Below, piece by piece: positions 1-64,000 of a DNA stretch of 64,000 bases; positions within the stretch are counted from its first letter, which is position 1, and every line of letters begins with the position of its first letter. The DNA is from an uncultured beta proteobacterium. Lineage in GTDB: Bacteria > Pseudomonadota > Gammaproteobacteria > Burkholderiales > SHXO01. Below the pieces are notes generated by a model, which had not been told where the DNA came from, did not search any database, and saw only the letters and a program-made list of their open reading frames with translations. The stretch is taken from contig CAVYZA010000028.1 of NCBI GenBank assembly GCA_963772865.1, positions 10,610 through 74,609 of the forward strand, given 5' to 3'. Made by a program: the position numbers and the translations under genes.

Positions 1-1230
1 GCCGCCTGGGCAGGGCACGCAGGCTCCAGAGCGTCTCCGAGGTCACGTAGCCGACTTCCTCGATGCCGGGAATCGGCGGCACGAACAGGCTGCCCACCCG
101 CTGCGATGACGATCGATCGCGTCGTCAGGGTGCGGGACTGCGCGCCGGTGCGCACCTCCACGGTCCAGGGCGATGTGATCTTCGCTTCGCCTTGGATCAC
201 CTCCACGCCGAGCCCGGTGTAGCGCTCCGCCGAATCGTGCGGTTCGATGGTGCGGATGACCTTGTGCACACGTTCCATGACCTCGGCAAAGTCGAACTCG
301 GCCTGTGCCGCACGAATGCCATAGTTGGCTGCGTGCCGGATGTGCGAAAGCAGCTTGGCCGAGCGGATCAGCGCCTTCGACGGCACGCAGCCGGTGTTCA
401 GGCACTCGCCACCCATCTTGTGCTTCTCGATGAGCGTCACCTTCGCCTTGACCGCCGCTGCGATGTAGGCGGCCACGAGCCCCGCAGAGCCCGCACCGAT
501 CACTACCAGGTTGCGGTCGAAGCGTGTCGGCTTCGTCCACTTCGCGTAGACCTTGCGCGCCTTGATCCAGTCGATGATCTTCTTGGCGATCAGCGGGAAG
601 ATGCCGAGGAGCGCAAAGGAGATCAGCAGGGACGGGGACAGGATGCCCTGGAGGGATTCGATCTGCGCAAGCTGGGTGCCCGCGTTCACGTACACGAGGG
701 TGCCCAGGAGCATGCCGATCTGGCTGACCCAATAGAAGGTGCGGGTCTTGATCGGCGTCAACCCCATCACGAGGTTGATCACGAAGAACGGAAACGCCGG
801 AACGAGCCGCAGCGTGAACAAGTAGAACGCGCCCTCGCGCTCCACCCCGGCGTTGATCGCGCGCAGCCGGTCGCCGAGCTTTCTGTGTACGGCATCTCGG
901 AACAGGAACCGGGAAGCCAGGAACGCAAGGGTTGCTCCGATGCTGGAGGCAAATGACACGATGAGCGTGCCCCAGAGCAGGCCGAAGATGGCCCCGGCCA
1001 CCAGGGTCATGATCGTCGCACCCGGCAGGGACAGCCCGGTCACCGCAACGTAGACCGCGAAGAAGCCGAGTGCCGTCTGCCACGGGTGCGTGTGATAGAA
1101 CGTGATGATCTCGGCTTGCTTCGACTTGAAATACCCCAGGCTGAGATACTGCCCCAGGTCGAAGGCGAAGAACGCCACGATCGCGGCGGCGATCGCGATC
1201 AGCAGGATTGCAGGATCTGGCTCGCGTCAT
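1..1230 (-). CDS. TVP38/DedA-family membrane domain fused to an FAD-dependent pyridine nucleotide-disulfide oxidoreductase (mercuric reductase / dihydrolipoamide dehydrogenase-like). The 3' end runs off the left edge. Frameshifted.
   Basis: Manual minus-strand translation; the ORF is absent from the track because it is open at the window edge. It reads ILLIAIAAAIVAFFAFDLGQYLSLGYFKSKQAEIITFYHTHPWQ...FLFRDAVHRKLGDRL...LVPAFPFFVINLVMG (DedA/TVP38 core). It continues NLVVIGAGSAGLVAAYIAAAVKAKVTLIEKHKMGGECLNTGCVPSKALI (FAD fold plus redox-active CxxxxC). The frame changes near nt ~95 (IVIAAGG then LFVPPIPGIEEVGYVTSETLW) and just downstream of the ATG at 1228-1230. Confidence 0.75.
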
Positions 1231-1701
1231 TCGCGTTGCAGGCATCCGCGCACGCCGCCGACCCTCGGGCCGGCGTAGAGCTTCGTGGCCGCGAATGAGC
1301 GTTCCGAGCAGGCGCTTCAATTGCTGGGCGCGGCGATCGCCGGTGTCGATCGCGTCGTGATACTCCGCGACCCGCTGGCGCAGGCGCACCGCGAGCTCCA
1401 GTCCGGCGTCGGTGATGAAGACGAGCACCTTGCGGCTGTCCGCGGCGTCGGCGGCGCGATGCACCCAGCCGCGGCTCACGATCCGGTCCATGAGCTTGGT
1501 CAGGGCGGGATGGTTCATGAGCACCAGCTGGGCCAGCTCGCCCATGGAACGGCCCTGCTCGTCGGACAGCACCTCGAGGACGCGCCACTGCTCGATGGTT
1601 GCACCTTCCTGGGCCAGCAGCCGCTCGAGTGTGGCGCTCACCACGCGGTTGGCCTGCGCCAGCAGATAGGTCAGTGAGGTCGTGATCGGTGGCTGGTCCA
1701 C
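1227..1701 (-). CDS. MarR-family transcriptional regulator (C-terminus unresolved, probable indel)
   Basis: The first ~140 aa of track ORF 43..1701 read LERLLAQEGATIEQWRVLEVLSDEQGRSMGELAQLVLMNHPALTKLMDRIVSRGWVHRAADAADSRKVLVFITDAGLEL, a winged-helix MarR fold. The remainder of that 552-aa ORF is stop-free GC-rich read-through. A TGA at 1227-1229 forms an ATGA overlap with the downstream ATG but lies one frame off. Confidence 0.8.
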
Positions 1702-1806
1702 TCGTCGCTATCGCCAGGATGAACTTGCCCTATTATAGGAGCCATTCCAATGCATCGAACCGGCCGGCGCCGCCCCTGCGCCGGCTGGGACGCCGAGCTC
1801 ACGTCC

Positions 1807-2972
1807 ATGATCGCACAGGTTGTACAGGGTTTCGAGGCTCCCGGGGGCAATCCCCTGACCGGCTTGTTTCGGGCGGTGGACCGGCGCCCGCGCCTGCCGC
1901 AGCACCGGCTGGCCCGAGCACGCGACCCGCTGCGGGTCGGCCTGTTCGTGCCGACCAGCGGCGCGGCCGGCATCTGGGGCCCTTCCACCATCGCCTGCGC
2001 ACGGTGGCGGCAGACGAGCTCAATCGAGCCGGCGGGGTCGAGGGACGGGAAGTGTCGCTGCTCGTGGTCGATGCCGCCAGCGAGAACGCGCGACCTGCTG
2101 CGCCTCGGCGGCCGGGCTGCTGGCCGATCGGGCCATCGACGCGGTCGTCGGCATGCACCTGAGCAGCGTGCGCAAGTCTCTGCTGCCCGTGCTCGGGGGC
2201 CGGCTCCCGTACATCTACACGCCGCTGTATGAAGGCGGAGAGCGGCATCCCGGGGTGTACACCATCGGCGAGACGCCGCTGCACCAGCTCGTTCCCGCGC
2301 TGGCGGCGCTCAGCGAGCAGCGCTCGCCGACCCGCTGGGCCTTGATCGGCAACGACTACGTCTGGCCGCGGGTGTCGCACCGCTATGCGCGCACTGCGCC
2401 TCGCGCGTCTCGGTTGCGAAGTGGTGCACGAGTCCTTCCTGCCCGCTGGGCTGCGACGACTACGAGCCGACGGTCGCACAGCTCGATCGCAGCGGCGCGC
2501 AGGCCGTGCTGCTGTCCCTGATCGGACAGGACGCCATCGACTTCAACCGTGCGTTCGCGGCAGCGCGCCTGGCGGGACGGATCCGCCGGCTGTCCTGCGC
2601 GATCGAGGAAAACGAGCTGCTCGCGATCGGCGCCGACCTCACCGAGGAGCTCTACGTCGCGGGGTCCTACTTCGCGAGCGCTCGCAGACCGACGCCAATC
2701 TGGCATTCCAGGAGCGCTACCGCAACAGCCTCGGTGCCCGCGCGCCGACGCTCAACGCGCTCGGCCAGTCCACCTATGAGGGCGTGCATTTTCTGCGTGC
2801 GCTGCTCGGCCGCGGCGACCGCCCCATCATCCCCGGCGAGCCGATCCCTTTCTGCAGCGCGCGCGGGGCGGTCTGGCGCGGCAACGACAGCCTGATCTAT
2901 CCGATCTACCTGGCCCGCGCAAACGGTCACGCGCTGCAGGTGACCCGCACGCTCAGTGCACCGGCTGGCTGA
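1807..2972 (+). CDS. AmiC/urea-type periplasmic-binding-fold protein without a signal peptide (AmiC-like amide sensor or binding protein); at least 5 apparent frameshifts
   Basis: Assembled from track ORFs 1750..2232 (LRVGLFVPTSGAAGIWGPSTIACA), 1689..2162 (ADELNRAGGVEGREVSLLVVDAAS) and 2153..2521 (MHLSSVRKSLLPVLGGRLPYIYTPLYEGGE...RWALIGNDYVWPRVSHRYAR). Also from 2385..2972 (GCEVVHESFLPAG; ANLAFQERYRNSLGARAPTLNALGQSTYEGVHFLRALL) and 2506..2895 (LLSLIGQDAIDFNRAFAAARLAGRIRRLSCAIEENELLAIGADLTEELYVAGSYFAS). Confidence 0.7.
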
Positions 2973-3078
2973 TCGCAGGCGGGCCGAGCACTGGAATGGT
3001 CAGCCCATTCGCGATGGAACCTGGCGTCAGCGGCGGCGAAGCAAGTGGCCAGCAGGTCAGGTAGCGGCCCGAAAGAAG

Positions 3079-3351: not shown

Positions 3352-4866
3352 TTGCTTCGACTGCTGCATGCCGCCGCGGCACGCCACCCGGCGGCACTCG
3401 CCGTGACCCAGGGCGCGACCTCTTGGCGCTACGCTGAGCTCGCGCGCAGGGTGGCGGGGACGGCCGCCTTCCTGCGCCGCACCGGCGCATGCCCCGGCGA
3501 TCGCATCGGCATCGCGATGTACAACCATCCCGGCTTCCTGCAGCTGCTGTACGCCTGCTGGCACGCCGGCCTGTGCGCAGTGCCGATGAACGCCAAGCTG
3601 CATCCGCGCGAGTTCGCCTACATCCTCGACAACGCCGGCATGCGCCTGTGTTTCGCCTCGCCCAGCTTGTACCCGGGCATCCGCGCCGAACTGCTTGGTG
3701 ACGACATCGGCCTCCTGGCAGCCGACACCGCGCTGTTCGACGAGATGGCCGGCGAGCCGCCGATGCCGCCCCACCCCGGGGAACCCACGATCCGGCGTGG
3801 CTGTTCTACACCAGCGGCACCACCGGCAGGCCCAAGGGCGCGACGCTCACCCAGCGCAACCTGCTGTTCATGACTCACGCCTACTACGCGGACATCGACC
3901 CGCTCGACGAGCGCGATACCATCGTCCACGCCGCGCCGCTGTCGCACGGGTCGGGTCTGTACGCACTGGCGCACGTCGCCAAGGCATCGCACAACGTGAT
4001 CACCCCTGCGACCTCGTTCACGCCCGCGGACATGTTCGAGATGATCGAGCAGTACGCCAACGTGTCGTTCTTTGCGGCGCCGACCATGGTCACACGCATG
4101 CTCGATGACGGCAGCGCGCCGCGGGCGCAGCTGGCCAACCTCAAGACCATCATCTACGGCGGCGGGCCGATGTACCTGTCGGACCTGGAACGGGCGCTGC
4201 AGCTGTTCGGACCGCGCTTGTATCAGGTCTACGGCCAGGGCGAAAGCCCGATGACCATCACCGGGCTCGGCAAGCGCGAGCACGCGCAGGCCTTCACGGC
4301 CGGCGACTTCGAGATTCTGGCCAGCGCAGGCGGTCCACGCACGGGTGTGGAAGTACGGGTCGTCGATGCTGACGACCGCGAGGTCCCCGACGGCGAGATC
4401 GGCGAGATCGCCACCCGCAGCGACTGCGTGATGCAAGGCTACTGGATGGATCCCGCTGCCAGTCAGCGCCGCGCTGCGCGGGGGCTGGCTGCATACTGGC
4501 GACCTCGGCAGCCGGGAGGCGCGCGGGTTCGTCACACTCAAGGACCGCTCCAAGGACATGATCATCTCCGGTGGATCGAACATCTACCCGCGCGAGATCG
4601 AGGACGTGCTGCTGCGTCATCCGGGCGTGGCCCAGGCCAGCGTCGTCGGCGCACCGCACCCGGACTGGGGCGAGGAAGTCGTGGCCTTTGTAGTCTCTTC
4701 GCCCGGAGCATCGATCCATCCGGAGGAGCTCGATTCGCTCTGCCTCGACAACATCGCACGCTACAAGCGTCCGAAGCGATATGTCTTCGTGGAGGATTTG
4801 CCGAAGAACAACTACGGCAAGGTGCTCAAGACTGAGCTGCGGGCGCAGCTGGAACGCAAGGGCTAG
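3352..4866 (+). CDS. AMP-dependent synthetase/ligase (acyl-CoA synthetase); 2 compensating frameshifts (~3790, ~4470)
   Basis: Assembled from track ORFs 3352..3873, 3870..4835 and 4558..4866. The AMP-binding motif appears after frame correction (AWLFYTSGTTGRPKGATLTQRNLLF). Other motifs are IYGGGPMY, YQVYGQGESP and DMIISGGSNIYPREIEDVLLRHPGVAQASVVGAPHPDWGEEVVAFVV...ARYKRPKRYVFVEDLPKNNYGKVLK. Confidence 0.85.
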
Positions 4867-7199: not shown

Positions 7200-7248
7200 C
7201 TGGCGGCGAAGAGACAGCGGCGCACATCCCTGGTGCGGCGCCCGGATG

Positions 7249-9000
7249 CTATCCGGACGCGTCGCTCCCAGCATCGTCGAAGCGCAGCGCGCTCGACCCC
7301 TCCCCGCGGCCCACCTGCTTGCGAAGCCCGATCCAAAGCAACGTGCTGCCGCCGAGCCAGCGCGTGTGCTCGAACTGGCGCGTGACCTTCACGCCCTCGC
7401 GCGGCACCTCCTCGTCGAACAACGCCAGCTTCGCCGCCGCATTCAGCAACTCGCCCTGCGCATGACGAACTACGTTCGATCCATCGGGCGCGAGCATCGC
7501 TGCACGCACGAGCCGCAGCGACGGCGGATCGGCCACCCGCTGCGGCAACAACGGCGTCCAATTCACAGGCACATCGGTCGCCAGGCGATACTGCGGCAGC
7601 CCGGTCGGCGTGGGCAAAGTCGTCTGCGGAGCATCCGGAGCAGCAGCGGGCTCGAGCCGGTTCTCGATCGCACCTTGAACGATGTGCTCCACTGCCCACG
7701 CCATGTTCGCCATCTCATCGCGCATGAACAGCACTTCCTCGAGCGGACGGCTGTCGATGGTCTTCAGCAGGCTCGGCGCAAGGAAGAACAGATTCGACCG
7801 AGGACGCAGTGCCGGTGTCTCCTTTCGGGCAATGCCGCTCAGCTCGAACATCGACCAGCCCGTTTGCGGTTTCGACGGATCGTTCATCGGAGAGATCAGA
7901 GTCTGCACGCCGAAGCTGTCGGTGATCACCAGCGAGCGAGTCTTGGTGAGCGTACCGATATCGAGATCAATCGGGATGACGTACCACTCGTTGCCAAAGC
8001 CGGTCGCGAACTCACTCAGCATCAGGTGAGGCAGGTCGCCAGGGCCTGCCGGCAGCAGGCCATAGTCGATCGCGGCATCCTCCATCTCCCAGAAGCGCTG
8101 CGCAGGCGCGCCGCGGAAAGTGACCGGCGCGGGCATCACTGCGCGCACGCAGCGACGTGCTTGCCTTGTCGGCCGCCGCGACCCAGATTGATCTCCGGAT
8201 CGTAGTCGACGCTGTGCCAATCGAGGTGACCTTCCGCGTACTGCGCCGCCGTCAGCGGAATCTCTTCGTTGCCGGGCGCACCAGCCGACCGAGAACGCAT
8301 ACTCCAGCCGCTCCGGATTCCACGCATCGGGCGCATTCGCCTGCGGCAGCGCGAACAGCGTATCGTGCTGCGCCAGCCACTCGTTGATTGCGCTATCGAC
8401 TTCCGCCTTGTCGCCGGCCGCGACGGGCAGGCTCGCGGGTATCGGAATGCGCTTGCCGGACGCATCGCGGAACGCCGCAACGAGTCGCACGGCCGTCCAG
8501 CGCGCGCGTCGCCATCAGCTTCCAATACGAAAGCGTCTCCGCGTCGACCGCTTGCACGCTCCGCATCGGTCGGCGGCTGCAGCGCAAAGCGCGCCAGGAA
8601 ATCCGGACGATAGCTGCGCGAGATCGGCTGCGCATCGAGCATGCGCAGGAAGTGCATGCCGCGACTCGACAGCCAACCGCAGCGAGCCTTCGCCCGTCGG
8701 ACCGCGCAGCGGCTGACGCTCCACCAGCGCTTCGAGCGGCATCGTCTTCGCGTCATAGCGCGGCGCACTGATGCTCGTGTCCTTCTTGATCGCACCCGCG
8801 TAGTAGCGCGTGATCGGTGCGCTGTCTGCGCGCCAGCGTGCGAGCACCGGCGAGCCGGTATCCTCGCCCTGAAACTCCGCCGCCTGCCACTGCCGCGCCA
8901 GCATCCACAACGGATCGTAGATGCGCGCGTGCACCGCTTCGTTCATTTCGTCGTCGCGACAGCGCGGCTCCAGCCGTACCCAGCTCGTGATCGATCCCAT
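7249..9000 (-). CDS. Operon gene 5: uncharacterised ~583-aa protein; at least 6 apparent frameshifts
   Basis: Assembled from track ORFs 8515..9000 (MGSITSWVRLEPR...IYDPLWMLARQWQAAEFQGEDTGSPVLARW), 8136..8795 (GMHFLRMLDAQPISRSYRPDFLARFALQPPTDAERAS; APGNEEIPLTAAQYAEGHLDWHSVDYDPEINLG) and 8393..8635 (VDAETLSYWKLMATRALDGR). Also from 7249..8490 (RFWEMEDAAIDYGLLPAGPGDLPHLMLSEFATGFGNEWYVIPIDL...GLRKQVGRGEGSSALRFDDA). An AGGGA Shine-Dalgarno sequence precedes the ATG at 9000. Confidence 0.6.
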
Positions 9001-9016
9001 GGGATTCCCTATTGCT

Positions 9017-12000
9017 CTACGTCGTGAGCGATTTGAAGTCGGGCGAGATCGCGTCGCCGTCGACGTTCACCGCGAAATGCAGCGCCGGAAGGAAGTGCGC
9101 GATCTCGCCCACCGCCTGCGCGCCCGGAATCGGATTCAGCACCGCGGTGTCCAATCCTTCAGCATCAATGGCACGCACCTGCGCCAGCCCAAGCGTATCG
9201 AGCAGCAGGCGATGCAATCCCCCGCCGGTCCACGGCTCGCCGGGCGACGAGGGCACAGCGAGCAGCATCACCTGGGGTGCACGCTGATCGGGCGCGTCGT
9301 GCTGGAACGCGATGGCGGTCGTTTCCCGTGAAGACGGTACGACTTCAACCCACTCGTCGACCAGCACGCCTGCGAGCGGCTGCGCCAGATTGAGCGCCGC
9401 ATCCGCATGCACCACGAGCGAGAGCTTGCCGGACGGCATCTCGCGCACGGGGTCGGCCGTCAAACCGATCCAGCGCTCACCATCGACGTGCGGGAGCTGG
9501 GCGACTGCGAGACGCAAAGTCGCGCCGGTGCGGGCAACCTCGGCTGCCTGCAAGCTCGCACTGAGACGCGACACCGGTTCGTGCACGCGCTGCACCCGCT
9601 GGAACCACGTATAGACGGCGAGCGGATCTCCGCCTTGCAGAGCCGTGCTGGCAGCGAGCGATTTGGTGAGCTCGGTCGCATCGGCCAGCGTGAAGCGTGG
9701 CAGTGCCAGAAAACCATCGCCGAACACGGCACGCAGCATGTCGAGCGGCGCCGCCGCGCTCTTCGAGCGTTCAACGCGAGCCTGCGCTTCCTTCGTTACC
9801 GCAGCGGCTTGGGCGAGCAACGCCTCGGCGGTCGCCGAAGGCAGCGGCGCCGACCCGGCTATACCGAAGCGGCCCAGCACCATGATCGCATTCCGTACCG
9901 GCGTCATGTCGGCCGTCTGTGGCGTTTTGAGCTTGGATGCGAGCGCAGCTGTTGCCGTGGTGAGCGCCTTCTGCGCGGCCTTGGCCCGCGTATCGAATTC
10001 GACGGCGTCGATGCGCGAGTCGAAGGATCCTTGCAGGCCCACCAGATCGCGCGCATCGAGTGATCGCATGCTCCCGAAGAGCTGCCGCGCACGCACTGCG
10101 AGCTCGGCCAGCTCCTCGAGACCCATCTCCGCGGGCAGCCAGGTCGCGTTGCGCTGACGATTGATGCGCAGCGTTTCGCCGGCCGCAAGCGGGCCGATCT
10201 TCGCCGCACCGGCTGCGAGCGCACGGGCGTCGATGTCGGGCGTCGGATCCCCCGCACGTGTGGGCGCTAGATACACAGCGTCGATCGGCTGAATGGCAAG
10301 CTCCGGTGAGGCGCAGATCGAGTGACTTGATCATGGCGCCTTGGGCGTCGAGCCGCTCCACCGCGAAGCGGATGTTCTTGAAGCTGCCCAACAGGCGTCC
10401 GGCCCAAGCGTTGAGCGTCGGCTCGGCGAGCGCGCGCGGAGAAGGCGGTGAAGCCGGTGCCGCCACGACGTTGAAAAGCGCCACGACACGATGCGTCACC
10501 GCGACACCGGTGCGCGGCGTGCGCACGACGTCGAGCTCGGGCGGCGGCGCGTCGCCGCTCGCAATGGCCTGCAACGTGGTCGCGGCGCGCAGAATGTTAC
10601 CGCGTACCGCTTGATGGGCGCATTCGGCGACCGCGGCATCGCTCAAGGCGTCGATTGCGTCATCCAGCAACGCAAGCTCCTTTTCACACCGCAACATGCG
10701 CGCGAGCTGGTCCGGTGTCGGGAAGCCGAAGCCGAGCCGCGATAATCTTTGCAGTGCCTTCGGCAGCTCGAGACCGTCCACGACATTGTTCGCGGCGATC
10801 GACTCGGCCGGCTGCGTTCCCGGCGCGTTGACCGGCCGTAGCGGAGCCATCGCCCGAAACTCGTCGATGTCCGCATCGTGCCCGAACTCGTGCAGCTTGC
10901 GTTCGAACAGGTAGCCCAGCACCGCGCCGAGCGGCTGGCCCTGGCGCACGCCGTCGAGCAGCGTCGTCGCGAGCCGCACGCGACGCGATGAGAGATCCAC
11001 CGCGAACAGATTCGGCGCATCCTCGCGCGAATGATTGATGTGCGCGTTTCGCAGAAGCGCCGCGGTCTGCGCCTGCATGATCGAAGGCGCGTGAACGAAG
11101 CCCGGATCGCCTGCCATCGCCAACACCTGACCGGTTTCGCCGGCCGGCGTCGCGACAGGCGCCTGCTTCTGTGTGGGTTTGAGATTGACCACCCAGCCGT
11201 AGCCGCCGATGCGCACGCCCGCCGGTTTTTGCGTGCGAAGGGTGGTCAGACGCCGCGACGCGAGCGACGTGATCCAAGCATCGATACGATGTGACGCAAC
11301 ATCGAGGGTGCCTTTGAGCAGCCGTTCGAGCCTGGTCGGCGTCAGACCCTGCAGGTGACTAAGTGCGGCACGCAGTTCCCCGAGCGGCTTCAACTCTGGC
11401 GTGTCGAACTTGGTGACCCCTTTCAGGAACGTGGCCGGCGGGGCGTTGTTGGTCTGACCGGTCGGACGCGTGAGGAACATGCGCCAGGTCATCGCGGCCG
11501 TCGCCGCATTCAGATTGACGAGCTCGCGTTCCCGCAGCAGCCGCGTGACCGGTGCCCCGCCAGGCTCCTTGCTCACATACCGCGCGGCCGCAGCGGCATA
11601 CTCGAGCTGCACGGAGTGACGCAGCAGCATGTGCAGGAGGGTCGCGGGCGCGCGGCATCGCGGGCGGCGGGGCGGTCTCCGTCGCCGGGAGCGGCGGATC
11701 TGTGAGGAGCGAGGTAATGTAGTTTGGTGAGAGCGTCGTCGCGCCATCGAGCTCCCCGGTCTGCACGAGGGGCGCGGAGATGGCCATCTGACCGTCGGAG
11801 TACGCCGCATCCTCCAACCGCGGATGCCACGCGAAGCCCAGCGCATTCAACACGGCCCGCGACACGGAATCCTGCGCCCCCAGCCAGCCGCTCGCGTTGA
11901 GGTCCTCGCCCATGAATCGGCGCAGATGCTCGATGCAGCGCGGCCCGAGTAGATAACGCAGCCGGTACGACGAGGCGACCGCATCGCTCTTCAATATCGC

Positions 12001-13427
12001 CGCGAGATCCTGTGCCGGATCGTCGCTGCGACCCACTCGCGGCACGTCGGGGACGCGCGGATGCCACAGCCGATCCGAGAGCGTCTTCAAGGTTGCGGCG
12101 AGCCAGCGTTCGCGCGCGTCCGCAATCTTCGCGGGGTCGCCGCCGAGCGGCGTCACCGGCAGCACGCCGTAGGGCTGACGGCCGACGCGCAACGTCGGCA
12201 GCGGACCGAACGCACGCACGTTCGCGATGAAGTGCTCGCGCGCCCACGCGATCGCCTCGAGCGTAAGCCCGGTGCCTTCGAGGCCGATCAGGTTCATCAA
12301 ATAGTAGCCCCACGTCGCCGGCCAGAGCGCGGTGGCCATCTGCTGCGCGTCGATCTGCTCGATGAGCGCAGCGTCCCAAAGCGTGCGTAGCGTCGCGTGC
12401 GTGACGGTTGCGTCGAAGCCGAATGCTCGGGCGAGTACATCGGCGTTGCTGCCGCTCGGTACGGCGGGCGCGCGACACTCGATCCCGAAGCTGCGCACGT
12501 GCATCGCATCCTGCGACGACCAACCGGACGGCGCTTCGGCGCTGTTGTTGGTCGGCGTGCCGACCCGCAGGAAGCCGAGACCATCGGTGTAGTGATGCGC
12601 GTCGAGCAACGAGGCGATTGCAGCCGACGCCGCGGCAGGATCGAGTGACGACACACCGAAGACAACGAGCGCATCGATGCCTTGCTGCGCAATCGCCGTC
12701 GGCACGCTTCAGCCGCAACGCCATGCCGTGCTTCTCGGCGTCCTCGAAGTCGACCATCCAGCGCATGCCTTCATCGAGTGCGAGGTTGGTCGTCCGTCGC
12801 CGCAGCAGTGTCGTTTGGATTCGGCCCGACCGCGGGTTCGCGATCGACCGGTGCGCCAAGTGCAGACGCAACCAGCGCGCCGCGCGCAGTCGCGACGGCG
12901 ATCCAGCGTTGCGGCATCGCTCGGGCAAGCGGCGCGCGCTGCCAGGTTCCGCCGGTCGGATCCTTGAGCATCGCGGCAGGGCTGAGCTTCGGCTCAACCG
13001 GCAAGGGCTGGTCGGCCGGGATCGGCGCGGATGGCCAGTCGCCGACATTGGTCGGACTCAACGCGCGCGCAATCCACGCCGCGCGCTGCGCATCGAACCG
13101 ATCGCACAGCTGCTGCCACGCAAGCCGTTCGCCGGCTTCATCGCGGCCTGCGCGCCAGATCTGCTGCCAGAAATGCTGGCCCCATAGAAACTCGTCCTGC
13201 GACAAGCCCGGTTCGTGCGAATCGACGTGCACCTGATCGGGATACACGCGCACGCGCAGCTCCTGCGACGCGGCGTCGGGCAGCGGAAAGAAGCGCGTCT
13301 CCAGCCGCACCGGCAGCATGAGCAGCGGCACGTCCGACGCGGCGAGGGTCGCGGCCAGCTCGGGTGGCAGTGCAGGCGCGGCGAACGAGAGCAGGTCACC
13401 GGGCGGAGGAAGCAGTCGTGCGGCCAT
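9017..13427 (-). CDS. Operon gene 4: uncharacterised giant protein (~1470 aa); at least 4 apparent frameshifts
   Basis: Assembled from track ORFs 12771..14753 (C-terminal part of that track ORF: MAARLLPPPGDLLSF...LPVRLETRFFPL...VRVYPDQVHVDSHEPGLSQDEFLWGQHFW), 11573..13048 (LALDEGMRWMVDFEDAEKHGMALRLK) and 11359..12705 (GIDALVVFGVSS...GLGFLRVGTPTNNSAEAPSGW...GRQPYGVLPVTPL). Also from 9771..11846 (LDVASHRIDAWITSLASRRLTTLR...GGYGWVVNL...GQPLGAVLGYLFERKLHE) and 9017..10276. The ATG at 13427 lies 2 nt after the stop of the upstream gene. Confidence 0.6.
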
Positions 13428-13429
13428 GG

Positions 13430-16400
13430 CTATTTGGTCTTCGGCTTGATAGTCGGCTGGGTAGCCGGCCTGATGCTCGGCCTGGTAATTCCCCCGCTCG
13501 GCGGCTTGGTAGCCGGTGCAGCCCGGATCAGCTCGGACGCGTGGATCGCCACGCGCACGGGTTGCTGGCGCGTGATCTGCGCCATGTGGGCGGAGTTGAA
13601 TGCCCACGTCGTTTTGGGGGGCAGCACGTGACCCGCCGGCGGCGCAGTGAGCGGGACGTGCGTGGCCGCACCGAAGTCGATCTCGACATCGAAACCGAAG
13701 CGCGGCTCGGTGGGCTGCTGCTGGATGACGAAGTACCAGCCGGGATTGCCGGTCGCGACCGCGGGGTCGAGATCGAAGCCGAAGAACGTGACGTCGGGCT
13801 GCAGCGAGCCGCGGAACAGCGGATGGATCTCGGTTCCGATGGGGCCGGGCTTGCGGCCATTGCCGACCGGTACTGCCGGCACCGCATACACGACGGCAGT
13901 CGGATAGCGGCGAAACAGGATGCTGCGTACGAGCAGCACGACTTGCTTGGCGGGGTTGCCGGCCGGCTCGGTTTTCGGTCAGCTTGTGTGTGCCCCACTC
14001 GGCGAGCGGCGCGATGTCGCCGTCGACGGGCGCATTGACCGTGCGCCAGAAACGGCGAAAGAACGTCGCGCGCGGATCGTCCACGATGAAGTCGCGCCAG
14101 AGCAGCTCGCGTCCCATCTCGACGTTCAGCCCCAGCATGAACGCTTCGATGAAGCGCTGGTTCGGCTCCAGCATCGCGACGCTGTCGATCGGCACGCGCT
14201 CGAGTCCAGGCAGCAGCCAATCCTGCGACAGCGCCGCGAGCGGTTCCGACATCGGCTGCGCGAAGACGGGCGCGCTGCCGACCGGGCCGATCGCAGGCGG
14301 CGCAGTGTCGCCCGCGAGGCGAATCGTGGCCTGCATGCGCAGCATCAGCGCCGGCGCGGGATCGAGCAGCGCCTGCACTTCGGTTCGCGCCGATGCTGCC
14401 TCGAGCACCACGTGCTTCGTGACAGGTGGGAAGAACCACGGCAGCTGGGGATTCACGAGCCCGAGATGCCGCACGGCTGCGGCGCGAAACGCCGCCGCGT
14501 CGGCGCTATCGAAGCGCGGCGGCGGTGGGGGTGGCGGCGGTGGGGGCGGCGGGGGCGGGGGCGGATCGACTGGATCGGGGAAGTCGCCCCCGTCACCGAT
14601 CGGCTGCAGACGCGTCCTGCGCACCGCCGTTCCCGCTCCACCGAGCAAGACTGTGCCGCTGATCACGCCGATCACCGGTGCCGGTTCACCCGTGACCACG
14701 AACGCCGGACGCGGCGGCATCGGAGCCGACGGTCGCGTCGTTGCCCCGCGCAAACGTCATGCTCTGAAACTGCGATGGCAGCCGGCTCGTCACCGCATCG
14801 AAGCTCACCATCCCGCGCGTGGGCGGCAGCGTGAAGATCATCACCCACGGCTGCGCCGTATACAGCCGGAACATGGACGAGATCGCCGTGCCGTCCGTGG
14901 CAGCCGGAGCCTGCATTCCCGCCAGGCGCACTGCGGTTGCCGCGCGGCGGCTGATGGCGCCCGCCGGACGTGCAAGCCGGCGCATCGCGGGCGACGTGAC
15001 GACAGTCGGCGTCGAAGACGCGACGAGCATCGAGCGCATCGTGACCGGGGCAGTGTTCGGCGGCGCGGCCATGACCAAACGCGACTGCGCGGGCGAAGCG
15101 AAGCGCCACAGCGTGTCGTCATCGTCCATGCGTTGGACGTGGCGCACGTGCAGCCGGCTCGTGATCGCGAGGCTGAGCTGCATCTGCCGCAGACGCTGAT
15201 TGACCTTCGCCATTTCGCCGGCCTGGTCCCAGGCGTCGGCCATCAGCTCTTCCTGATGCTCTTGAATCACGCGCGTGCCGAGCGCCGCGACGACGCGCTC
15301 GCGAGGATCGAGATTCAGCTCGTCGAGCCAGGTCGGCGGTTGCGCAGCGCCGACCTGATTGCGGCCCGCATAGTAGCGGCCATAGATGGGCGGTCCGAGC
15401 ACCGGTTCCGCGTTGACCTCCATTGCATTCGCGCCAGCAACATTCACGATCGATTGCAGCTTCTGCTGCCAGGTCTTCGTCGCGTCGTCTGGAAAGAGTG
15501 CACGCGGCGCTTTGACCGGCTGCAGCGCGCCTTCGAGCATGATCGGCGGGGATGACCGTCGGCGGTGTCGTCTGCGGCACGACGAAACCCGGTGCGCTGA
15601 TATCCATCGGACGCCGTCCGACGGTGTCGGCGAAATCGCGCGGCTCGAGACGAGCGACGATCGATTCGAAATCTTCGCGCGCGCCGGTGCGGAATTCCCA
15701 ATAGTAGTAAACCGGCAGCGTGACATTGCCCGGTGCATTCGGGCCGCTCTTCCATGCCGGTGTGAGCGTGGCGTCGACGTCCGGCGCCCCTCCCAATCCC
15801 GCGAGCCGTCCCGCTTCGAACGCCGGCACCACGCACGCGATGTATTCGGTGTTCTCTTTGAGCAGCCGCGGCGACAGCAGCCGCGAGACCGACAGTTGCG
15901 GATAGTTCACGAGCACGTCGCGCAGCTCGCCTTCAGTTGCGCCCACGTGCGCGCCGAGCTGCGCGTGCGCCCAGGCCCACGAGTCGACGAGAGCCGGCAG
16001 CTCCTCTGACGGCAGCGCCGGCGCTCCGATCTCGAGCACCGGCAAGAGCTCGGTGCGCGGCGGACGCAGCCGCACGCCGTCCTGCTTGCGCACGACCACG
16101 AGCACGATCCACGGACGCACGCGGCCTTGGCCATCGGCAGCGGCCGGCGTGAACAGCCACGGCAGATCGGGATTGTCGAACTCCACCGCGACGAGATCGT
16201 TCGACTCGTAGTTGTCGGTGCCGGCGGGCGGTTCCGTGCGCACGACCTGACGCGGATCGATGCCGATCACGTCGGCTGGGCCGAACAGCCGCACGCCGAC
16301 CGACGCGGCGTCGATGCTGTTCACGCCGAGCGTGACGCCGAGCGGGGCCTGCGCCGGCAGCGGCGTTTTCAGCGGATCGGGCGTCGTGATGCGCGCCGCG

Positions 16401-16447
16401 AGCCCTTGTCTCACCCACGGCAAGAACACCACGCTTGCGTCGGTCAT
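13430..16447 (-). CDS. Operon gene 3: uncharacterised ~1005-aa protein containing a 16-proline tract; at least 3 apparent frameshifts
   Basis: Assembled from track ORFs 15119..16447 (MTDASVVFLPWVRQGLAARI...FGPADVIGIDPRQVVRTEPPAGTDNYESNDLVAVEFDNPDLPWLFTPA...SWAWAHAQL) and 14686..15738 (WLDELNLDPRERVVAALGTRVIQEHQEELMADAWDQAGE). Also from 12771..14753 (N-terminal part: FVVTGEPAPVIGV...DPVDPPPPPPPPPPPPPPPPRFD...LEPNQRFIEAFMLGLNVEMGRELLWRDF) and 13430..13939 (YPTAVVYAVPAV...GWYFVIQQQPTEPRFGFD). The start ATG overlaps the upstream stop as ATGA at 16444-16447. Confidence 0.6.
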
Positions 16448-48452: not shown

Positions 48453-49398
48453 ATGAAGATAGCGATCGTAGGAGCCGGCGGCGTCGGCGGATATTTCGGC
48501 GCGCGCCTGGCCGCGGCAGGTGAGGACGTCTGGTTCATCGCGCGCGGTGCGCACCTGGACGCGATGCGGCAGAGCGGCCTGCAGGTCTACAGCGCCAACG
48601 GCGACGTGCTGATCAAGCCGTGCAAGGCCACCGACAAGCCCGCGGAGGTCGGCACGGCGGATCTTGTGATCGTCACGGTGAAGCTGTGGTCCACGCAGGC
48701 GGCCCTGGCGGACGCGAAGCCGATGGTGGGCCCGAAGACCGCGGTCGTCTCGTTCCAGAACGGCGTCGTGGCCGCGGACCAGATCGCGCAGGTCTACGGG
48801 CGCGAGCGCACCCTGGGCGGTGTCGCCAACATCGGGGCTGTGATCGAGAAGCCCGGCGTCATCCGCCACACCGGCACGATGGCGGGGCTCACCTTCGGCG
48901 AACTGGACGGGAAGATCTCGCCGCGCGTGCAGGCGCTGGCCGAGGCTTGCACCCGCGCCGGCATTCAGCACAAGGCGAGCGACGACATCACCAAGGCGAT
49001 CTGGGAGAAGTACGTGTTCCTGGTTGCCGCCAGCGCGATGACCTCGCTCACGCGCCTGCCGGTGGGTGCGGTTCGCGAGGATCCCGACACGCGCGCGCTC
49101 ACCGGGCAGATCATGGCCGAGGCCGCTGCGGTGGGTCGCGCCAAGGGCGTCGAACTCGACGCGGACCTGCCGGAGAAGCTGCTCGCCCGCATGGACACGC
49201 TGCCGCGCGCAGATGGTCGCCTCCATGCTGGGCGATCTGGAACGCGGCAACCGCCTGGAGCTGCCGTGGCTGTCCGGAGGTGTAGTCGAAATGGGCCGGG
49301 AGCTCCGCATCGCCACGCCGGCCAATGCTTTCATAAGTGCCGCGCTCAAACTCTACATCGACGGGCGGCCGGCGGACGCGCGGAACGTGCCGCACTAG
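48453..49398 (+). CDS. panE: 2-dehydropantoate 2-reductase (ApbA/PanE family); 1 frameshift near 49205
   Basis: Track ORF 48366..49421 from M30 (MKIAIVGAGGVGGYFGARLA...) joined to ORF 49066..49398 (MVASMLGDLERGNRLELPWLSGGVVEMGRELRIATP). Confidence 0.85.
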
Positions 49399-54293: not shown

Positions 54294-55679
54294 ATGAGCG
54301 TAGCACTAGCAAGCGTCCAGACCGCAATCGACGAACTGCGCGTCCTGCTGGGAGATCGACTGTCCACCAGCACCGGGGTGCGCGATCACCACAGCAAGGA
54401 CGAGTCCTGGCACATTCCGCATCGCCCCGATGCAGTTGCCTTCCCGGTCAGCACCGAGGAAGTCGCGCAGATCGTGCAGATCTGCGCCCGCCATCGCACG
54501 CCCGTCGTGGCCTACGGAACCGGCACCTCGCTGGAGGGCAACGTCATTCCCGAGAACGGCGGCGTGGTCGTCGACCTCATGCACATGGACAAGGTCCTCA
54601 AGGTCAACGCCGAGGACCTCGACGTGACCGTGCAGGCGCGCGTCACCCGCAAGCAGCTGAACGACTACATCCGCGACCAGGGCCTGTTCTTCCCGATCGA
54701 TCCCGGCGCCGATGCATCGCTGGGCGGCATGGCCGCCACCCGCGCCTCGGGCACCAACGCCGTGCGTTACGGCACGATGCGCGAGAACGTTCTCGCACTC
54801 ACGGTGGTGCTCGCCGACGGGCGCATCATCCGCACGTCGCGGCGCGCCCGCAAGTCCGCCGCCGGCTACGATCTCACGCGCCTGTTCGTCGGCAGCGAGG
54901 GAACACTCGGCATCATCACCGAAGTAACGCTGCGGCTGTACGGCATACCCGAGGCGATGGCGGCGGCGGTATGTTCGTTCGACACGCTGGAAGGCGCCGT
55001 CAACACCGTCATCCAGACCATCCAGCTCGGCATACCCGTCGCCCGCATCGAGCTGCTGGACAGCGTGCAGATGGACTCGGTGAACCGGTTTTCCAAGCTG
55101 AGCTACCCGGTCAAGGACACGCTGTTCATCGAGTTCCACGGCACCGACAAGGGCGTGAACGAGCAGGCGCAGACGGTACAGGCCATCGCCTCGGAGCACG
55201 GCGGCGGCGAGTTCAAGTGGGCGACCAGGCAAGAGGAGCGCTCGCACCTGTGGCAGGCGCGGCACGACGTCACCTACGCCAACAAGGCGCTGCGCGCCGG
55301 CTGCGAGATCTGGGCGACCGACGTGTGCGTGCCGATCTCGCGGCTGGCCGAGTGCATCCTCGAGACCAAGAAGGACCTGCAGGGCAGCTCCCTGATCGCG
55401 CCGCTGGTGGGGCATGTCGGCGACGGCAACTTCCACCTTGGCTTCCTGATCGACCGCAACAACCCCGCCGAGATCGAGGAGGTCGAGCGGCTCAACGAAC
55501 GGCTGGTGATGCGGGCGCTGGCGATGGACGGCACCTGCACCGGCGAGCACGGCATCGGGCTGGGCAAGATGAAGTTCCTCACCGCCGAGCACGGCGAGGG
55601 CGTGGCCGTGATGCGCGCGGTCAAGAAAGCCCTCGATCCGCTGAACATCCTCAATCCGGGGAAGATCTTCTCGCTGTGA
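54294..55679 (+). CDS. FAD-linked oxidase (D-lactate/glycolate dehydrogenase GlcD-like)
   Basis: Track ORF 54015..55679 from M94 (MSVALASVQ...). The reading frame is intact. Motifs are PDAVAFPVSTEEVAQIVQICARHRTPVVAYGTGTSLEGN, GYDLTRLFVGSEGTLGIITEVTLRL and GTCTGEHGIGLGK. Confidence 0.9.
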   Translation: MSVALASVQTAIDELRVLLGDRLSTSTGVRDHHSKDESWHIPHRPDAVAFPVSTEEVAQIVQICARHRTPVVAYGTGTSLEGNVIPENGGVVVDLMHMDKVLKVNAEDLDVTVQARVTRKQLNDYIRDQGLFFPIDPGADASLGGMAATRASGTNAVRYGTMRENVLALTVVLADGRIIRTSRRARKSAAGYDLTRLFVGSEGTLGIITEVTLRLYGIPEAMAAAVCSFDTLEGAVNTVIQTIQLGIPVARIELLDSVQMDSVNRFSKLSYPVKDTLFIEFHGTDKGVNEQAQTVQAIASEHGGGEFKWATRQEERSHLWQARHDVTYANKALRAGCEIWATDVCVPISRLAECILETKKDLQGSSLIAPLVGHVGDGNFHLGFLIDRNNPAEIEEVERLNERLVMRALAMDGTCTGEHGIGLGKMKFLTAEHGEGVAVMRAVKKALDPLNILNPGKIFSL

Positions 55680-59377: not shown

Positions 59378-59976
59378 GCGTGGCGGAACTGCAGCTGCGA
59401 ACATCCCGACGCTGCACGCGCAGGCAGGCACGCCGGAGAGTCGTCGCTGGGAGACGCGCCTTCGCGAGGACCAATGCTACGCTCGCCCGTATCTCTCCAC
59501 GTGCGACGCCTGCACGGTTTCCCTGGGCGGCGGTTGCGTCGGCCAAGCGGGCTGCATACCTCCCGCGCGCCCGTAGCCGACACATACGACACCGGATTTG
59601 CCGTGCAGTCGGCGGCGACAGAGGCACGTTGGAGTTCCAGACGGTGACGCTGTCGCGCCCGTAGCGCGGCACGCTGTTGTTGTCGGCGGCGAAGTCCGGC
59701 CGCGGATGCGGTCGAGCCCGACGGTTGCCATGACCAAGGCGGTGTGTAGAAGCGACTCTTCATGATGTCCCCTTGAAAAGCGCGTGGCGCGTCGGCGGGG
59801 CGGGAGAGTGTCGCGGCCCTGGCAGGGCAGCAGAGCTGGGTGGGCGACGGTAGCTATGGATCGGCGGGCCGGAGCAACGGACACCACGCTCCAGGAAGCC
59901 GCACGCCGCCCGTCGACGCGGCGGACGGGGCGAGCCCGTTCCGCCGCGTGTGGTTTCCGAGTCAGGCTGTAGCGGT

Positions 59977-60307
59977 TACTTCTTGGTCGCTGCTTGCTGA
60001 GTCGGCGCCTGCGTCTGGGGCGTCGCCATGTTGGTCCGTTCCAGCACCGCCTGATCGCGCGCGATACCGACCGGCTTGGGCGGCTCTGCAGTCGCGCGGC
60101 ATGTTGGTCCGGTCCGCTGACCGCTTGGTCGTGAGTCACCGTCAGCTGACCTGGATCAGTCCCTTCGCGCGACGGCATATTGGTGCGTGCCGCCACGTCC
60201 TTGTCATAGCCGACTTTGACTTGCCCCAAGTCTTCCGCCAGGAGCCCGGCGGAAGCAACGCCAAGTGCTGCTGCAGTGACTGCTGCCAAGGTGAGCTTGA
60301 GCTTCAT
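59977..60307 (-). CDS. Small secreted protein with three tandem ~26-aa repeats (D-K/Q-x-V..RTNM-P/A); 2 frameshifts
   Basis: Track ORF 59477..60364 from M20 (MKLKLTLAAVTAAALGVASAGLLAEDLGQVKVGYDKDVAARTNMPSREG...). Manual reading of the other two frames gives DRTNMPRD and then AEPPKPVGIARDQAVLERTNMATPQTQAPTQQAATKK-TAA (59977-59979). Confidence 0.45.
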
Positions 60308-60812
60308 ACAAACCTCCGTTTGCCGATTTGCGGGCACGGATGCCCCCATGCGGCCGGCCCCCATAGGCCATCCGCTCCGATCGGTCGCGAGGAGTAGTAA
60401 TCGCTTCCCTCTCCATCCTTGACGCTTGCTCCGTTGTTCGTATTCGTAGCCAGGTGGGTGATTCTATGCACGGGTGCAGCTTTACCGCGCGACCCGCTTG
60501 CGGCGCACTGCCGATCCCTCTCGACGCAGCAGCCTCGATTGCCTGCGGCGCCGTGCGAGTGGTCAGTTGCTATCCATCAAGCACCCCCCAGGCACCTTTG
60601 CCGCAAGCGCTAAATGCGCACGGTCGCCGGCACCCACGTAGGACCATACACCTGAGCCACTTACATATGACTTACAGATTGGGATGTAAGGCTTACAAAC
60701 CGAGGGGTCACGACGTCAACAGGCGACGTCCTCGTTCTCGCCTGCCTCGCGCCACCCATTCGATGTCCGAAAACGGCGAGACACGCCCTGGGTGCAGCCG
60801 CATAATACCGGC

Positions 60813-62266
60813 ATGCTCCTCGACCCGGAAAGCTGCTACCGCGCATTTGCGACCCACGACGCGCGCTTCGACGGACGCATGTTCGTCGGTGTCGCGTCTA
60901 CCGGCGTCTACTGCCGGCCAGTGTGTCCAGCCCGGCGCCCGCGCCGGGAGAACTGCCGCTTCTACGTGAGCGCGGCGGCGGCGGAACGCGAAGGCTTTCG
61001 ACCGTGCCTGCGCTGCCGGCCAGAGCTCGCCCCCGGCAACGCCAGCGTCGACGCGCAAGCGCGGCTCGCGCAAGCGGCAGCCAGCCTCATCGAAGACGGG
61101 CTGGCGAGCGACGCCGGACTCGAGGCGATCGCGGCGCGCCTACGCGTGACCGACCGGCACCTGCGGCGGGTGTTCCAGGCTGAGTTCGGCGTCACGCCGG
61201 TCGAGTACTCGCAGACACATCGCCTGTTGCTGGCCAAGCGTCTCCTGACCGATTCGGCGCTTCCCGTCACGCAAGTGGCCTTCGCAGCCGGCTTCGGCAG
61301 CCTGCGGCGCTTCAATGCATTGTTCAACGCGCGTTACCGGGTCAGTCCGACGGGTCTGCGCAGGCACGTGAAAACCGGCACGACTCAAGACACGCTGCGC
61401 TTCGAGCTGGCCTATCGCCCGCCGCTCGATTGGGTCGCGCTGCTCGCTTTTCTTGCGGGGCGAGCCATCGCCGGGGTGGAATCAGTCGGCGCAACAACGT
61501 ATCGCCGCACGGTATCGATCGAGCATCGCGGCGCCGCGCATAGGGGCTGGATCGAAGTGCGGCAGGCACCTCGCCAGAAGGCAGCCTTGGCGGTTGCGCT
61601 GGCGCCTTCGTTGAGCGCAGTCATCCCGCAGGTGCTGGCGCGAGTGAAGCACCTGTTCGACCTGGCATGCGACCCGCTGGCCGTCGCCGAGCGGCTCGGT
61701 CCGCTCGCTGCGGCCCGGCCGGGCCTGCGCGTGCCGGGGGCGTTCAGTGGATTCGAGATCGCAGTGCGCGCCGTGCTCGGACAGCAGGTCACGGTGAAGG
61801 CGGCACGTACCCTGGCGGGGCGCTTCGCTGCCCGCTTCGGCACGCCGCTCACCACACCGTTCGCCGAGCTGCAACACGACGTTTCCCGACGAGCGCCGGA
61901 TCGCGTCGGCCGAAGCCTCGCAGATCGGTGAGCTCGGCATTCTGCGCGCCCGCACGCGCGCGATCCAGGCACTGGCGCAAGCGCTCGCCGCCGGCTCGAC
62001 TCAAGCTCGAGCCGATGGTCGCCGTGGAAGAGACAATCAGCGGACTGCGGGCGCTGCCGGGATTCGGCGAATGGACCGCGCAGTACATCGCCATGCGCGC
62101 ACTGGCGTGGCCCGATGCGTTTCCGAGCGCGGACTTCGGCGTGCTGAAGGCGCTCGACGAAACCGATCCGCGCCGGGCGCTGGCCCGCGCCGAAACCTGG
62201 CGGCCATGGCGCGCCTATGCCGTCATGCATCTATGGAGCCATTTGACGGAGAAAAAGCAGCCATGA
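60813..62266 (+). CDS. alkA: Ada-like Zn-finger/AraC regulatory domain fused to AlkA-type DNA-3-methyladenine glycosylase II; 2 frameshifts (~61880, ~62000)
   Basis: Track ORF 60792..61931 from M8. The Ada Zn-binding region reads CYRAFATHDARFDGRMFVGVASTGVYCRPVCPARRPRRENCRFY...GFRPCLRCRP and the AraC HTH reads VTDRHLRRVFQAEFGVTPVEYSQTHRLLLAKRLL. A manual frame gives FPDERRIASAEASQIGELGILRARTRAIQALAQALAAG. Track ORF 61667..62266 gives LRALPGFGEWTAQYIAMRALAWPDAFPSADFGV. Confidence 0.85.
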
Positions 62267-62853: not shown

Positions 62854-62927
62854 GACGAAGCAAGACCGCTTCCGGGCGGCAAAGTGCGCCGCGCGTGCGG
62901 CGGCGAATGTTGCCGCCGCGCCTCGAT

Positions 62928-63288
62928 CTACGGCGCGGCTAGACAGTACTCGGCAAGGGCCTGCAGGACTTCGGCGTCCTCGCCCGCCGCCGCAACGACT
63001 GTCACTGACACCCCCGGCTCGACGCTCCGCGGTTGCGATCAGCGTCGGAACATCGTTGCGCAAATGCCCTCCTGTGCCGAGGAACAAGGGCACCACGACG
63101 ATCCGGCTGGCTCCCTCGTCCACGAGGGCCGCACATGCTGTCGGCAGGTCTGGTTGCATATGCTCGAGGAAAGCTTGAGACACCGGCCCCGCATGCCGGG
63201 GCTGCACCAGCGCGAACAGGCGGTCGAAGGGTTCGCGCCAGCGTGCATCGCGTGCACCGTGCGCAAAGAGAACAAGGCCAGTAGTCAT
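62928..63288 (-). CDS. cbiX: CbiX-type (sirohydrochlorin chelatase-like) small protein; 1 frameshift near 63010
   Basis: Track ORF 62785..63288 reads TGLVLFAHGARDARWREPF...ASRIVVVPLFLGTGGHLRNDVP. The corrected tail reads ...GEDAEVLQALAEYCLAAP-TAG (62928-62930). Confidence 0.7.
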
Positions 63289-63522
63289 CGAGACAAGATC
63301 GCGGTTGGCGTATGTTACCGAGACATCAACGTCTCGGGTTCGCGCGGGCGGTACGCACTATCTTGAGGCCACGCGGGGCTGTGTGATAGGGTTGCGCCCC
63401 TCTGTCCGCACGGCTGACTCGACGAGATCTTGCACAGCCGCGACCATCTGGCGCTGCGCTTGTCTCCGACGGGAACAGCCGAGCGGTTGGCGCATGTCAC
63501 CCGCCGATACAGGAACAACAAC

Positions 63523-64000
63523 ATGGTAGAGAACGCTGTGAATCTCGCTCGCGCGGCAGGGCTCGCTTTGGCACTCGTCGCTGCTTTGGCGGCGGGTTGC
63601 GCGCAGCAGCGCACGGCGCCAATGACGAGCCGGCCCCCGGTCGCGGCAGCCAATGGCAGCGGCGAGCGCAAGGTCGTGCTGTTCAGAGCTGTACTGGACG
63701 TCGACGGCACGCAGATGGATGAGCCGTGGTCGCTGCATCTCAGCGGCATGAGACTGTTCACGGTCGTCGGCCCGGCAGACGCGAGCCTCGCCTCGCAGGA
63801 CAGCTTCCTTCCAGGCCAGCTGGGCGCGACCGCCGCCGGCGCCGGGTGGGCGTTCGTCGCGCTGCCGGCGGGCGCTTATCAGCTGCAGCTCGAGGGCACG
63901 GCAATCCGGTTCGCGATGGCCGGCTCGCAGTACAACAGCACCGATGGCGTGGCGGTCGGCCGATCGCCTGCGTCGGTATTCGTTCTGCCTGCCGATGGAA
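63523..64000 (+). CDS. Putative lipoprotein, 5' part only (runs off the right edge)
   Basis: Manual translation gives MVENAVNLARAAGLALALVAALAAGCAQQRTAPM... (lipobox L-A-A-G-C). The frame stays open to the window end, so the ORF is not in the track. Confidence 0.5.
   Translation, partial: MVENAVNLARAAGLALALVAALAAGCAQQRTAPMTSRPPVAAANGSGERKVVLFRAVLDVDGTQMDEPWSLHLSGMRLFTVVGPADASLASQDSFLPGQLGATAAGAGWAFVALPAGAYQLQLEGTAIRFAMAGSQYNSTDGVAVGRSPASVFVLPADG

Follow-up and report, generated by a model that had tools for sequence, protein, structure and literature searches.

The stretch of DNA considered here, the window, is a 64-kb piece of a contig (CAVYZA010000028.1) from an uncultured beta proteobacterium, with ~67% G+C and roughly 46–48 genes typical of Burkholderiales. 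Scans of the window for tRNAs and Rfam families gave no match. The subject of this report is a set of insertions and deletions (indels), most of a single base, that break the reading frames of many of these genes, and their probable origin. The breaks include 24 in a conserved operon of five genes for giant proteins, which is laid out as follows:

20138–22998, minus strand: operon gene 1 (~950 amino acids), one-base insertions at 22554, 22237, 21839, 21780 and 21026
16447–20135, minus strand: operon gene 2 (DUF6603, ~1280 amino acids), one-base insertions at 19326, 19004, 18538, 18521, 18281 and 18229
13430–16573, minus strand: operon gene 3 (~1010–1160 amino acids), one-base insertions at 15551, 14725 and 13966
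9020–13496, minus strand: operon gene 4 (~1490 amino acids), one-base insertions at 12783, 12706, 11652 and 10304
7267–9000, minus strand: operon gene 5 (~580 amino acids), one-base insertions at 8662, 8549, 8488, 8283, 8181 and 8150

The closest public relatives of the window are metagenome-assembled contigs; a search for exact matches to its proteins gave none, and the best protein hits reach 99% identity. Several are long-read metagenome-assembled genomes (MAGs) of the Microflora Danica (MFD) project or ENA assemblies with Flye-style names ("contig_NNNNN"). The MFD pipeline consists of Flye 2.9.2 run with --meta --nano-hq, followed by one round of Medaka 1.8.0 (PMC12313526). The sequencing platform of each relative was assigned from its contig name and the MFD paper, which gives a Flye-style set (L001, L003, L005, L007, L053–L056, L058 and L059) and a set with short-read-style names of the k141_, k127_ or JGI Ga... 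type (L002, L004, L006, L057 and L060–L062). Three of the Flye-style contigs recur below: L007 (CAVUHQ010000024.1), L055 (ERZ25039490 contig_28181), and L053 (ERZ25039502 contig_49562).

Frame breaks were detected in two ways. The reference-free approach is a Viterbi segmentation by codon usage into six coding frames and a non-coding state, trained on the relatives' intact genes; a frameshift-like switch is a change of coding frame that keeps to one strand and has no stop codon of the upstream frame nearby. Owing to the G+C content of the window, the coding frame is easily read from codon usage. The segmentation found 42 such switches, or 0.75 per coding kb, a minimum, since events that lie close together are counted as one. 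In the comparative approach, the window was aligned to close relatives (85–96% nucleotide identity) and the pairwise indels were collected, with tblastn searches of the relatives' proteins as a complement. Across both methods the total comes to ~54–58 frame-breaking indels in ~20 of the roughly 46–48 genes. A preliminary description of this DNA, made by manual reading, had put the number of events at 55–60, which the two independent methods match, and the number of affected genes at about 27, which is too high. Comparison with related genomes, which it had named as a check, was carried out by alignment and confirmed the frame breaks.

The support for the events differs by region. The operon (7.2–23.2 kb) was aligned with six orthologous loci at 73–93% identity, and comparison with two clean references, L001 and L002, gave the 24 frame-breaking events in the five genes, all of them single-base insertions; the Viterbi switches lie only a few bases from the insertions called by alignment. 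Between 24.2 and 37.6 kb, five relatives (85–96% identity) yielded 12 coding events. From 37.8 to 44.5 kb the window has a single event (42466), and the remaining pairwise coding indels are insertions in L055. About 12 events between 1 and 4.9 kb come from comparison with L058 and tblastn of its proteins. The 5–6 events between 44.5 and 64 kb rest on the codon-usage Viterbi segmentation and split Pfam domains, as the FAD-oxidase anchor used for the right end gave only non-syntenic short-read contigs, covering 54.3–55.7 kb. Three candidates were removed. Those at 18769 (2 bases) and 14610 (5 bases) were withdrawn, being variable columns that amount to multiples of three against the clean references, and 35628 was dropped from the coding events as intergenic.

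In operon gene 1 the insertions are private with respect to L001, L007 and L003–L005, tblastn changes frame, and correction restores an open reading frame (ORF) of 952 amino acids; in gene 2 an ORF of 1280 amino acids is restored. Gene 5 is spanned by a single tblastn high-scoring segment pair because the number of its insertions, six, is divisible by three. L001/L002 are reported to lack all 24 operon events, and 22 of them are absent from every informative relative; the recurring sites are 19326 in L007 and 14725 in L001. With the frame restored to that of L001/L002, the operon reads as ORFs of 952, 1280 and 1009+ amino acids and a frame that stays open through genes 4 and 5, all without an internal stop. 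The correction overshot at the junction of genes 4 and 5, so that both look fused. An initial correction limited to private indels had left some ORFs broken, as it missed events that are common to one relative or lie in variable columns. The only stop codon in the restored frames lies within the overlap upstream of the start of gene 3, in keeping with the earlier remark that hardly any in-frame stops accompany the shifts. Neither a nonsense mutation nor a larger deletion was found in these 16 kb with 24 frameshifts, and codon position 3 accounts for 60–70% of the differences from L001/L002, which concentrate there in every gene (520/748 in gene 4).

Above the curated Pfam cut-off, only gene 2 of the operon has a match (DUF6603), and gene 1 has a sub-threshold PhoD-like match. 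Homologues of gene 2 occur in contigs that bear the labels Burkholderiales, Acidobacteriota, Nitrospira, Myxococcaceae and Bacteroidota, among others. All five genes are retained at the closer loci. The operon and the gene at 23410–24093 are absent from the syntenic site of L058 (window 7200–24200 versus L058 11700–18600), which holds ~7 kb of other genes instead (ApbE, NosR-like, cupin, and cyclase). The operon therefore lies in a strain-variable region.

The events are markedly one-sided in kind. Among the 49 whose type was resolved, 45 are insertions and 4 are deletions (binomial p = 8e-10), the operon accounting for 24 and 0, respectively. The preliminary description had raised homopolymers as a possible site of the indels, and the insertions are in fact depleted there: extension of a homopolymer can explain 7 of 38, compared with 52–60% expected for a randomly inserted base (p = 2e-7), and no insertion site has a homopolymer run of four or more. 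Two of the deletions, at 2003 (GGG to GG) and 3789 (GG to G), look like ordinary homopolymer contractions.

The identity of the inserted bases is also not random. In 16 of the 29 window insertions that are testable, the inserted base is one of the alleles that relatives have at the adjacent column, compared with 11–22% at random sites and 28% for simulated insertions (p = 0.002 for the excess); for the simulation, 150 random bases were inserted into clean relatives, realigned with MAFFT and passed through the same pipeline. At 19004, the window reads GGT[CT]TCGAC where relatives have T or C. At four insertion sites (24631, 24912, 25201, and the intergenic 35628), the window has the allele of L053 next to that of L054. 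The private insertions of other Flye-style contigs behave alike, with matches in 31/49 for L007, 11/15 for L053, 20/41 for L055, and 72/128 when pooled (p = 1e-11).

The type of assembly matters as well. By the same Viterbi procedure, short-read-style contigs (L002, L004, L006, L057, L060 and L061) have 0–1 frameshift-like switches per locus, or 0–0.11 per coding kb, and Flye-style contigs have 0–1.82. Frame-breaking insertions are denser than in the window in three contigs of the same clade, with 68 private insertions in 16 kb of L007, 57 in 12 kb of L055 and 20 in 13 kb of L053, and these have the same non-homopolymer, tandem-allele signature.

Along the window the events are unevenly spread, as the preliminary description had noted. 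Counts in 4-kb bins do not fit a rate that is constant across coding sequence (chi-square 35.8 with 15 degrees of freedom, p = 0.002, and 0.002–0.004 for the unevenness overall; variance/mean 2.6), and each of the three largest event-free gaps exceeds those in 98–99.8% of simulations. The bin and gap tests used a list of 58 events that included 18769, 14610 and 35628, whose later removal is expected not to alter the outcome. Up to 36.7 kb there are ~1.5 events per coding kb, and beyond that point ~0.3 (Fisher p = 1e-6). Two zones that had been described as free of frameshifts remain so:

36715–42031: frameshift-free stretch with no Viterbi switch, where all coding indels relative to L055 are insertions in L055
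49418–55679: frameshift-free stretch with no convincing Viterbi switch and with full-length Pfam matches, showing 0 gaps relative to short-read relatives over 54318–55670

It is in the clean part of the window that L055 carries insertions.

Taken together, these observations indicate, with a probability of roughly 85%, that the frame breaks arose as errors in the consensus of a long-read metagenome assembly (Nanopore, of the Flye plus Medaka type) in which strain variants were collapsed, and are not mutations of the organism. The ~20 "broken" genes, including the five-gene operon, are then most probably intact in the cell. The errors could arise as follows. Two or more closely related strains would be present in the sampled population and be merged into one contig. 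At the site of a single-nucleotide polymorphism (SNP), the consensus would write both alleles in tandem ("xy" for "x" or "y"), adding one base. A consensus "xy" would cost each read one deletion, which is cheap in the Nanopore error model, whereas "x" would cost half of the reads a mismatch. The density of insertions would track the local amount of collapsed strain variation and probably depth too; were this model true, it would therefore be uneven along a contig and different between assemblies. Low depth may also contribute. The more specific proposal, that the insertions are a readable footprint of strain polymorphism and each marks a SNP of the co-assembled population written as two tandem alleles, is favoured by a slender balance of the evidence.

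Several points weigh against assembly error from collapsed strains. The clean stretches of the window do not follow from its local divergence from the available relatives. About 45% of the insertions match no allele in the few relatives at hand, and plain errors from low depth may account for some of these. The window has three or four insertions in common with L053, which is apparently an independent assembly. The window itself is presumed to be of long-read origin from its relatives and the error signature, and the likelihood argument for a tandem-allele consensus is our own. A literature search for this error mode gave no paper that describes it, only general statements on homopolymer indels, coverage, and microdiversity.

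The insertions common to L053, the nearest relative (~97% identical in genes), deserve closer attention. Of the 12 events between 24 and 36 kb, 8 are private and the other 4 are shared with L053 only (34927, 36461, 35825, and 26787–26793); at 26787–26793 the two contigs have the extra base at variable sites that are close together but not identical. Such recurrence requires that one and the same SNP segregates in the two samples or that a systematic error is tied to the site, and the shared insertions are tentatively regarded as recurrent artefacts at the same segregating SNP. Random error would not be expected to place insertions at identical or adjoining sites of two assemblies that diverge by ~3%.

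The alternative that survives best, though it is unlikely, is the version given in the preliminary description, that is, ordinary random consensus errors of long reads from locally low coverage with no strain mixture. Nanopore consensus quality drops below ~40x (PMC9262707), and the MFD paper, which names microdiversity as a limiting factor besides the effects of low coverage, ties poor coding density to low coverage (PMC12313526). The share of insertions that match no known alternative allele and the strong differences in error density between assemblies would also suit such errors. Random errors should not, however, produce insertions over deletions at 45:4, avoid homopolymers (7/38 versus ~55%), or prefer the alternative allele of a neighbouring site (16/29 versus at most 28%). 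The classical residual errors of Nanopore data are homopolymer indels (PMC9262707), the opposite of what the window contains.

Genuine and very recent pseudogenisation, for example in a mutator state or through relaxed selection on the operon and its neighbours, had been kept in view by the preliminary description and is very unlikely given the bias to insertions and the tandem-allele pattern. It would account for indels that are physically in the deposited sequence, for the three or four that are common to L053, and would suit the location of the operon in a variable region absent from L058. Spontaneous indels in bacteria are biased to deletions and repeats, whereas those of the window are overwhelmingly insertions outside repeats. 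The operon lacks the nonsense mutations and larger deletions that decay would bring, other assemblies of the clade are equally dense in breaks at different sites, and codon position 3 dominates the differences throughout, even after shared frameshifts. Downstream of the frameshifts shared with L053, differences between the two contigs fall at the ancestral codon position 3 in 17/18 cases for the amidase and 12/17 for the Sel1 gene, with synonymous to non-synonymous ratios of 17:1 and 12:5 and 0 stops. This divergence is not neutral-looking, and the shared frameshifts are therefore not old pseudogenes; inheritance of pseudogenes was ruled out by this persisting purifying selection. The preference for an artefact over old pseudogenes, already expressed in the preliminary description, is thus upheld by indels that are private or shared with L053, restored ORFs, purifying selection downstream, and a signature found in Flye-style and not in short-read contigs. 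Reductive genomes rich in pseudogenes, such as that of Mycobacterium leprae or those of recently host-restricted bacteria, are characterized by deletion bias, nonsense mutations, larger deletions, and relaxed selection. The window resembles them in the large fraction of genes that are frameshifted and differs in showing none of these four features.

Systematic basecalling errors at methylation motifs or in another fixed sequence context are less likely still. Nanopore errors linked to methylation are known in general, and such errors would explain why the window and L053 have some insertions at identical sites. Methylation motifs had been suggested earlier as the setting of the indels, but the sites share no motif: within 8 bases of 44 insertion sites, no 4-, 5- or 6-mer is enriched after correction for multiple testing (lowest p = 1.4e-3, among 375 six-mers), and at 36461 L054 has identical flanks and no insertion. 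Biological recoding by programmed ribosomal frameshifting or transcriptional slippage, which has in its favour only the existence of frame changes inside otherwise conserved genes, has a negligible probability, since single genes have as many as 7 changes at positions that are not conserved, the orthologues of six or more relatives run through these sites without interruption, and no homopolymer or slippery run is found there.

Assembly error from collapsed strains has close parallels among known artefacts. Frameshifts from consensus indels are a recognized problem of Nanopore assemblies and are normally blamed on homopolymers (PMC9262707; PMC13543314). As in the frameshifts of Nanopore-only assemblies revealed by IDEEL-type tests (Sereika et al. 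2022, PMC9262707), one-base indels in the window split genes into adjacent ORFs, how often they occur varies with the assembly, and the same loci are clean when assembled from short reads. The classical form is an error in homopolymer length, often a deletion, whereas the window has nearly all insertions, depleted in homopolymers and located at strain-variable sites. Artefacts of collapsed haplotypes or strain mixtures, as produced by haploid polishers run on mixed samples, also place errors at polymorphic sites of a contig that is a consensus of more than one genotype. They differ in that the tandem-allele outcome of one added base is not described in the literature found, and it is deduced here from sequence comparison only.

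As an artefact, the phenomenon is of low biological interest, and its practical weight lies in annotation. Taken at face value, the sequence would make ~40% of the genes here pseudogenes, including the conserved five-gene operon for giant proteins, which the evidence opposes. Annotation, pseudogene counts, arguments on operon function, and harvests of protein families need frame-corrected sequence, also for the sister contigs L007, L053 and L055, which are as bad or worse. Frame-breaking insertions in public contigs are a database-quality issue beyond the window, and most correction tools and quality checks are geared to homopolymer errors, which this signature is not. The error signature is apparently tied to collapsed strain variation, and higher depth alone may therefore not remove it. 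If the phenomenon is general, it would be an undescribed class of systematic error in many long-read MAGs used as species representatives. Such errors could then also be detected and corrected from the assembly alone, as one-base insertions outside homopolymers that give back the frame once removed, and they would reveal local strain heterogeneity with no need for reads.

The remaining affected genes lie at the left end and between 24 and 64 kb. At the left end they are:

1–1230, minus strand: Pyr_redox/VTT-domain gene (5' part in window), one-base insertion at 86 and 4-base insertion at 1210 just after the start codon
1282–1701, minus strand: MarR gene, frame intact, stop codon lost through a 2–3 base deletion near 1279–1281
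1778–2952, plus strand: periplasmic-binding-protein gene, ~7 events, namely a one-base deletion at 2003 and one-base insertions at 2090, 2102, 2399, 2441, 2677 and 2686
3352–4863, plus strand: AMP-ligase gene, one-base deletion at 3789 and one-base insertion at 4467

With the loss of the MarR stop near 1281 counted as one, these are the ~12 events of the first 4.9 kb. The tblastn match of the L058 orthologue to the Pyr_redox/VTT gene shifts frame at ~87–94 and begins only at residue 7. MarR of L058 (140 amino acids) aligns over 1701–1282 at 96% identity; L058 ends in ...HE followed by a TAG stop, and the window reads on. Four Viterbi switches, pairwise indels relative to L058 and a tblastn frame change mark the periplasmic-binding-protein gene. 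The AMP-ligase gene is matched by tblastn in frames +1/+3/+1, and its motif YTSGTTGRPKG stands in another frame than the upstream part after the deletion at 3789, as described before. The gene junctions at 1227, 29409 and 45006 had been described as one frame off. At 29409 and 45006, indels just upstream are responsible. The junction at 1227 is indeed disrupted, with a different cause, namely the loss of the MarR stop together with the 4-base insertion after the start codon of the next gene. The 80-base intergenic region around it (1205–1285) contains a cluster of multi-base differences from L058, consisting of two 4-base insertions and the 2–3-base deletion that removes the MarR stop, and these are unlike the single-base events elsewhere in the window.

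Between 24 and 64 kb the affected genes are:

24225–25985, minus strand: second AMP-ligase gene, one-base insertions at 24631, 24912 and 25201, the tandem-allele sites named above
26199–28689, minus strand: ABC-ATPase/amidase fusion gene, one-base insertions at 26787–26793, 27738 and 28621
28690–30542, minus strand: ABC ATPase and permease, one-base insertion at 28874 in the ATPase and one-base deletions at 29437 and 29449 in the permease, just before the ATGA junction at 29412–29409
34809–36581, minus strand: gene for 212 amino acids with a one-base insertion at 34927, and Sel1-repeat gene with one-base insertions at 36461 and 35825, all three also in L053
42035–43463, minus strand: AllG gene, one-base insertion at 42466
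45009–45850, minus strand: AllH gene, at least one frame change near 45100–45200 (~45.15 kb), roughly placed
46991–48144, minus strand: aminotransferase gene, frame change near 47947
48460–49395, plus strand: ketopantoate reductase (ApbA/PanE) gene, frame change near 49201
60790–62263, plus strand: Ada-AlkA gene, frame changes near 61870 and 61998

The example of a split amidase given in the preliminary description holds, as one extra base at 26787–26793 separates RLRALG from the 11 residues that follow. In the cleanest relative (L054 15864–18380), the ABC ATPase and the amidase form one fused protein of 838 amino acids, and in the window their gene lies downstream of genes for a branched-chain-type permease and a binding protein.

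The frame changes of the right end are visible in split domains. In AllH, positions 60–108 of the Pfam AllH profile match in one frame, a weak tblastn match to the upstream residues lies in another, and the Viterbi segmentation agrees. The aminotransferase has positions 38–346 of 361 of Aminotran_1_2 in one frame and its N-terminus in another. In the ketopantoate reductase gene, the ApbA_C profile matches with positions 1–79 in one frame and 74–123 in a second. The Ada_Zn, HTH_18 and AlkA_N domains of Ada-AlkA share one frame, and the rest is spread over two other frames ahead of ogt. A further possible event at 57445 is uncertain. The 1.4 kb at 59396–60789 have no convincing coding signal in six frames, their longer ORFs lack Pfam matches, and there is no Rfam or tRNA match; this segment may be non-coding, may code in an atypical way, or may be a gene that many indels have damaged. 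On the minus strand, 37900–45850 holds AllF, AllG and AllH (oxamate carbamoyltransferase subunits), two genes of the amino-acid/carbamate-kinase family and an isochorismatase-family gene, a cluster that suggests a nitrogen pathway of the allantoin/oxalurate type.

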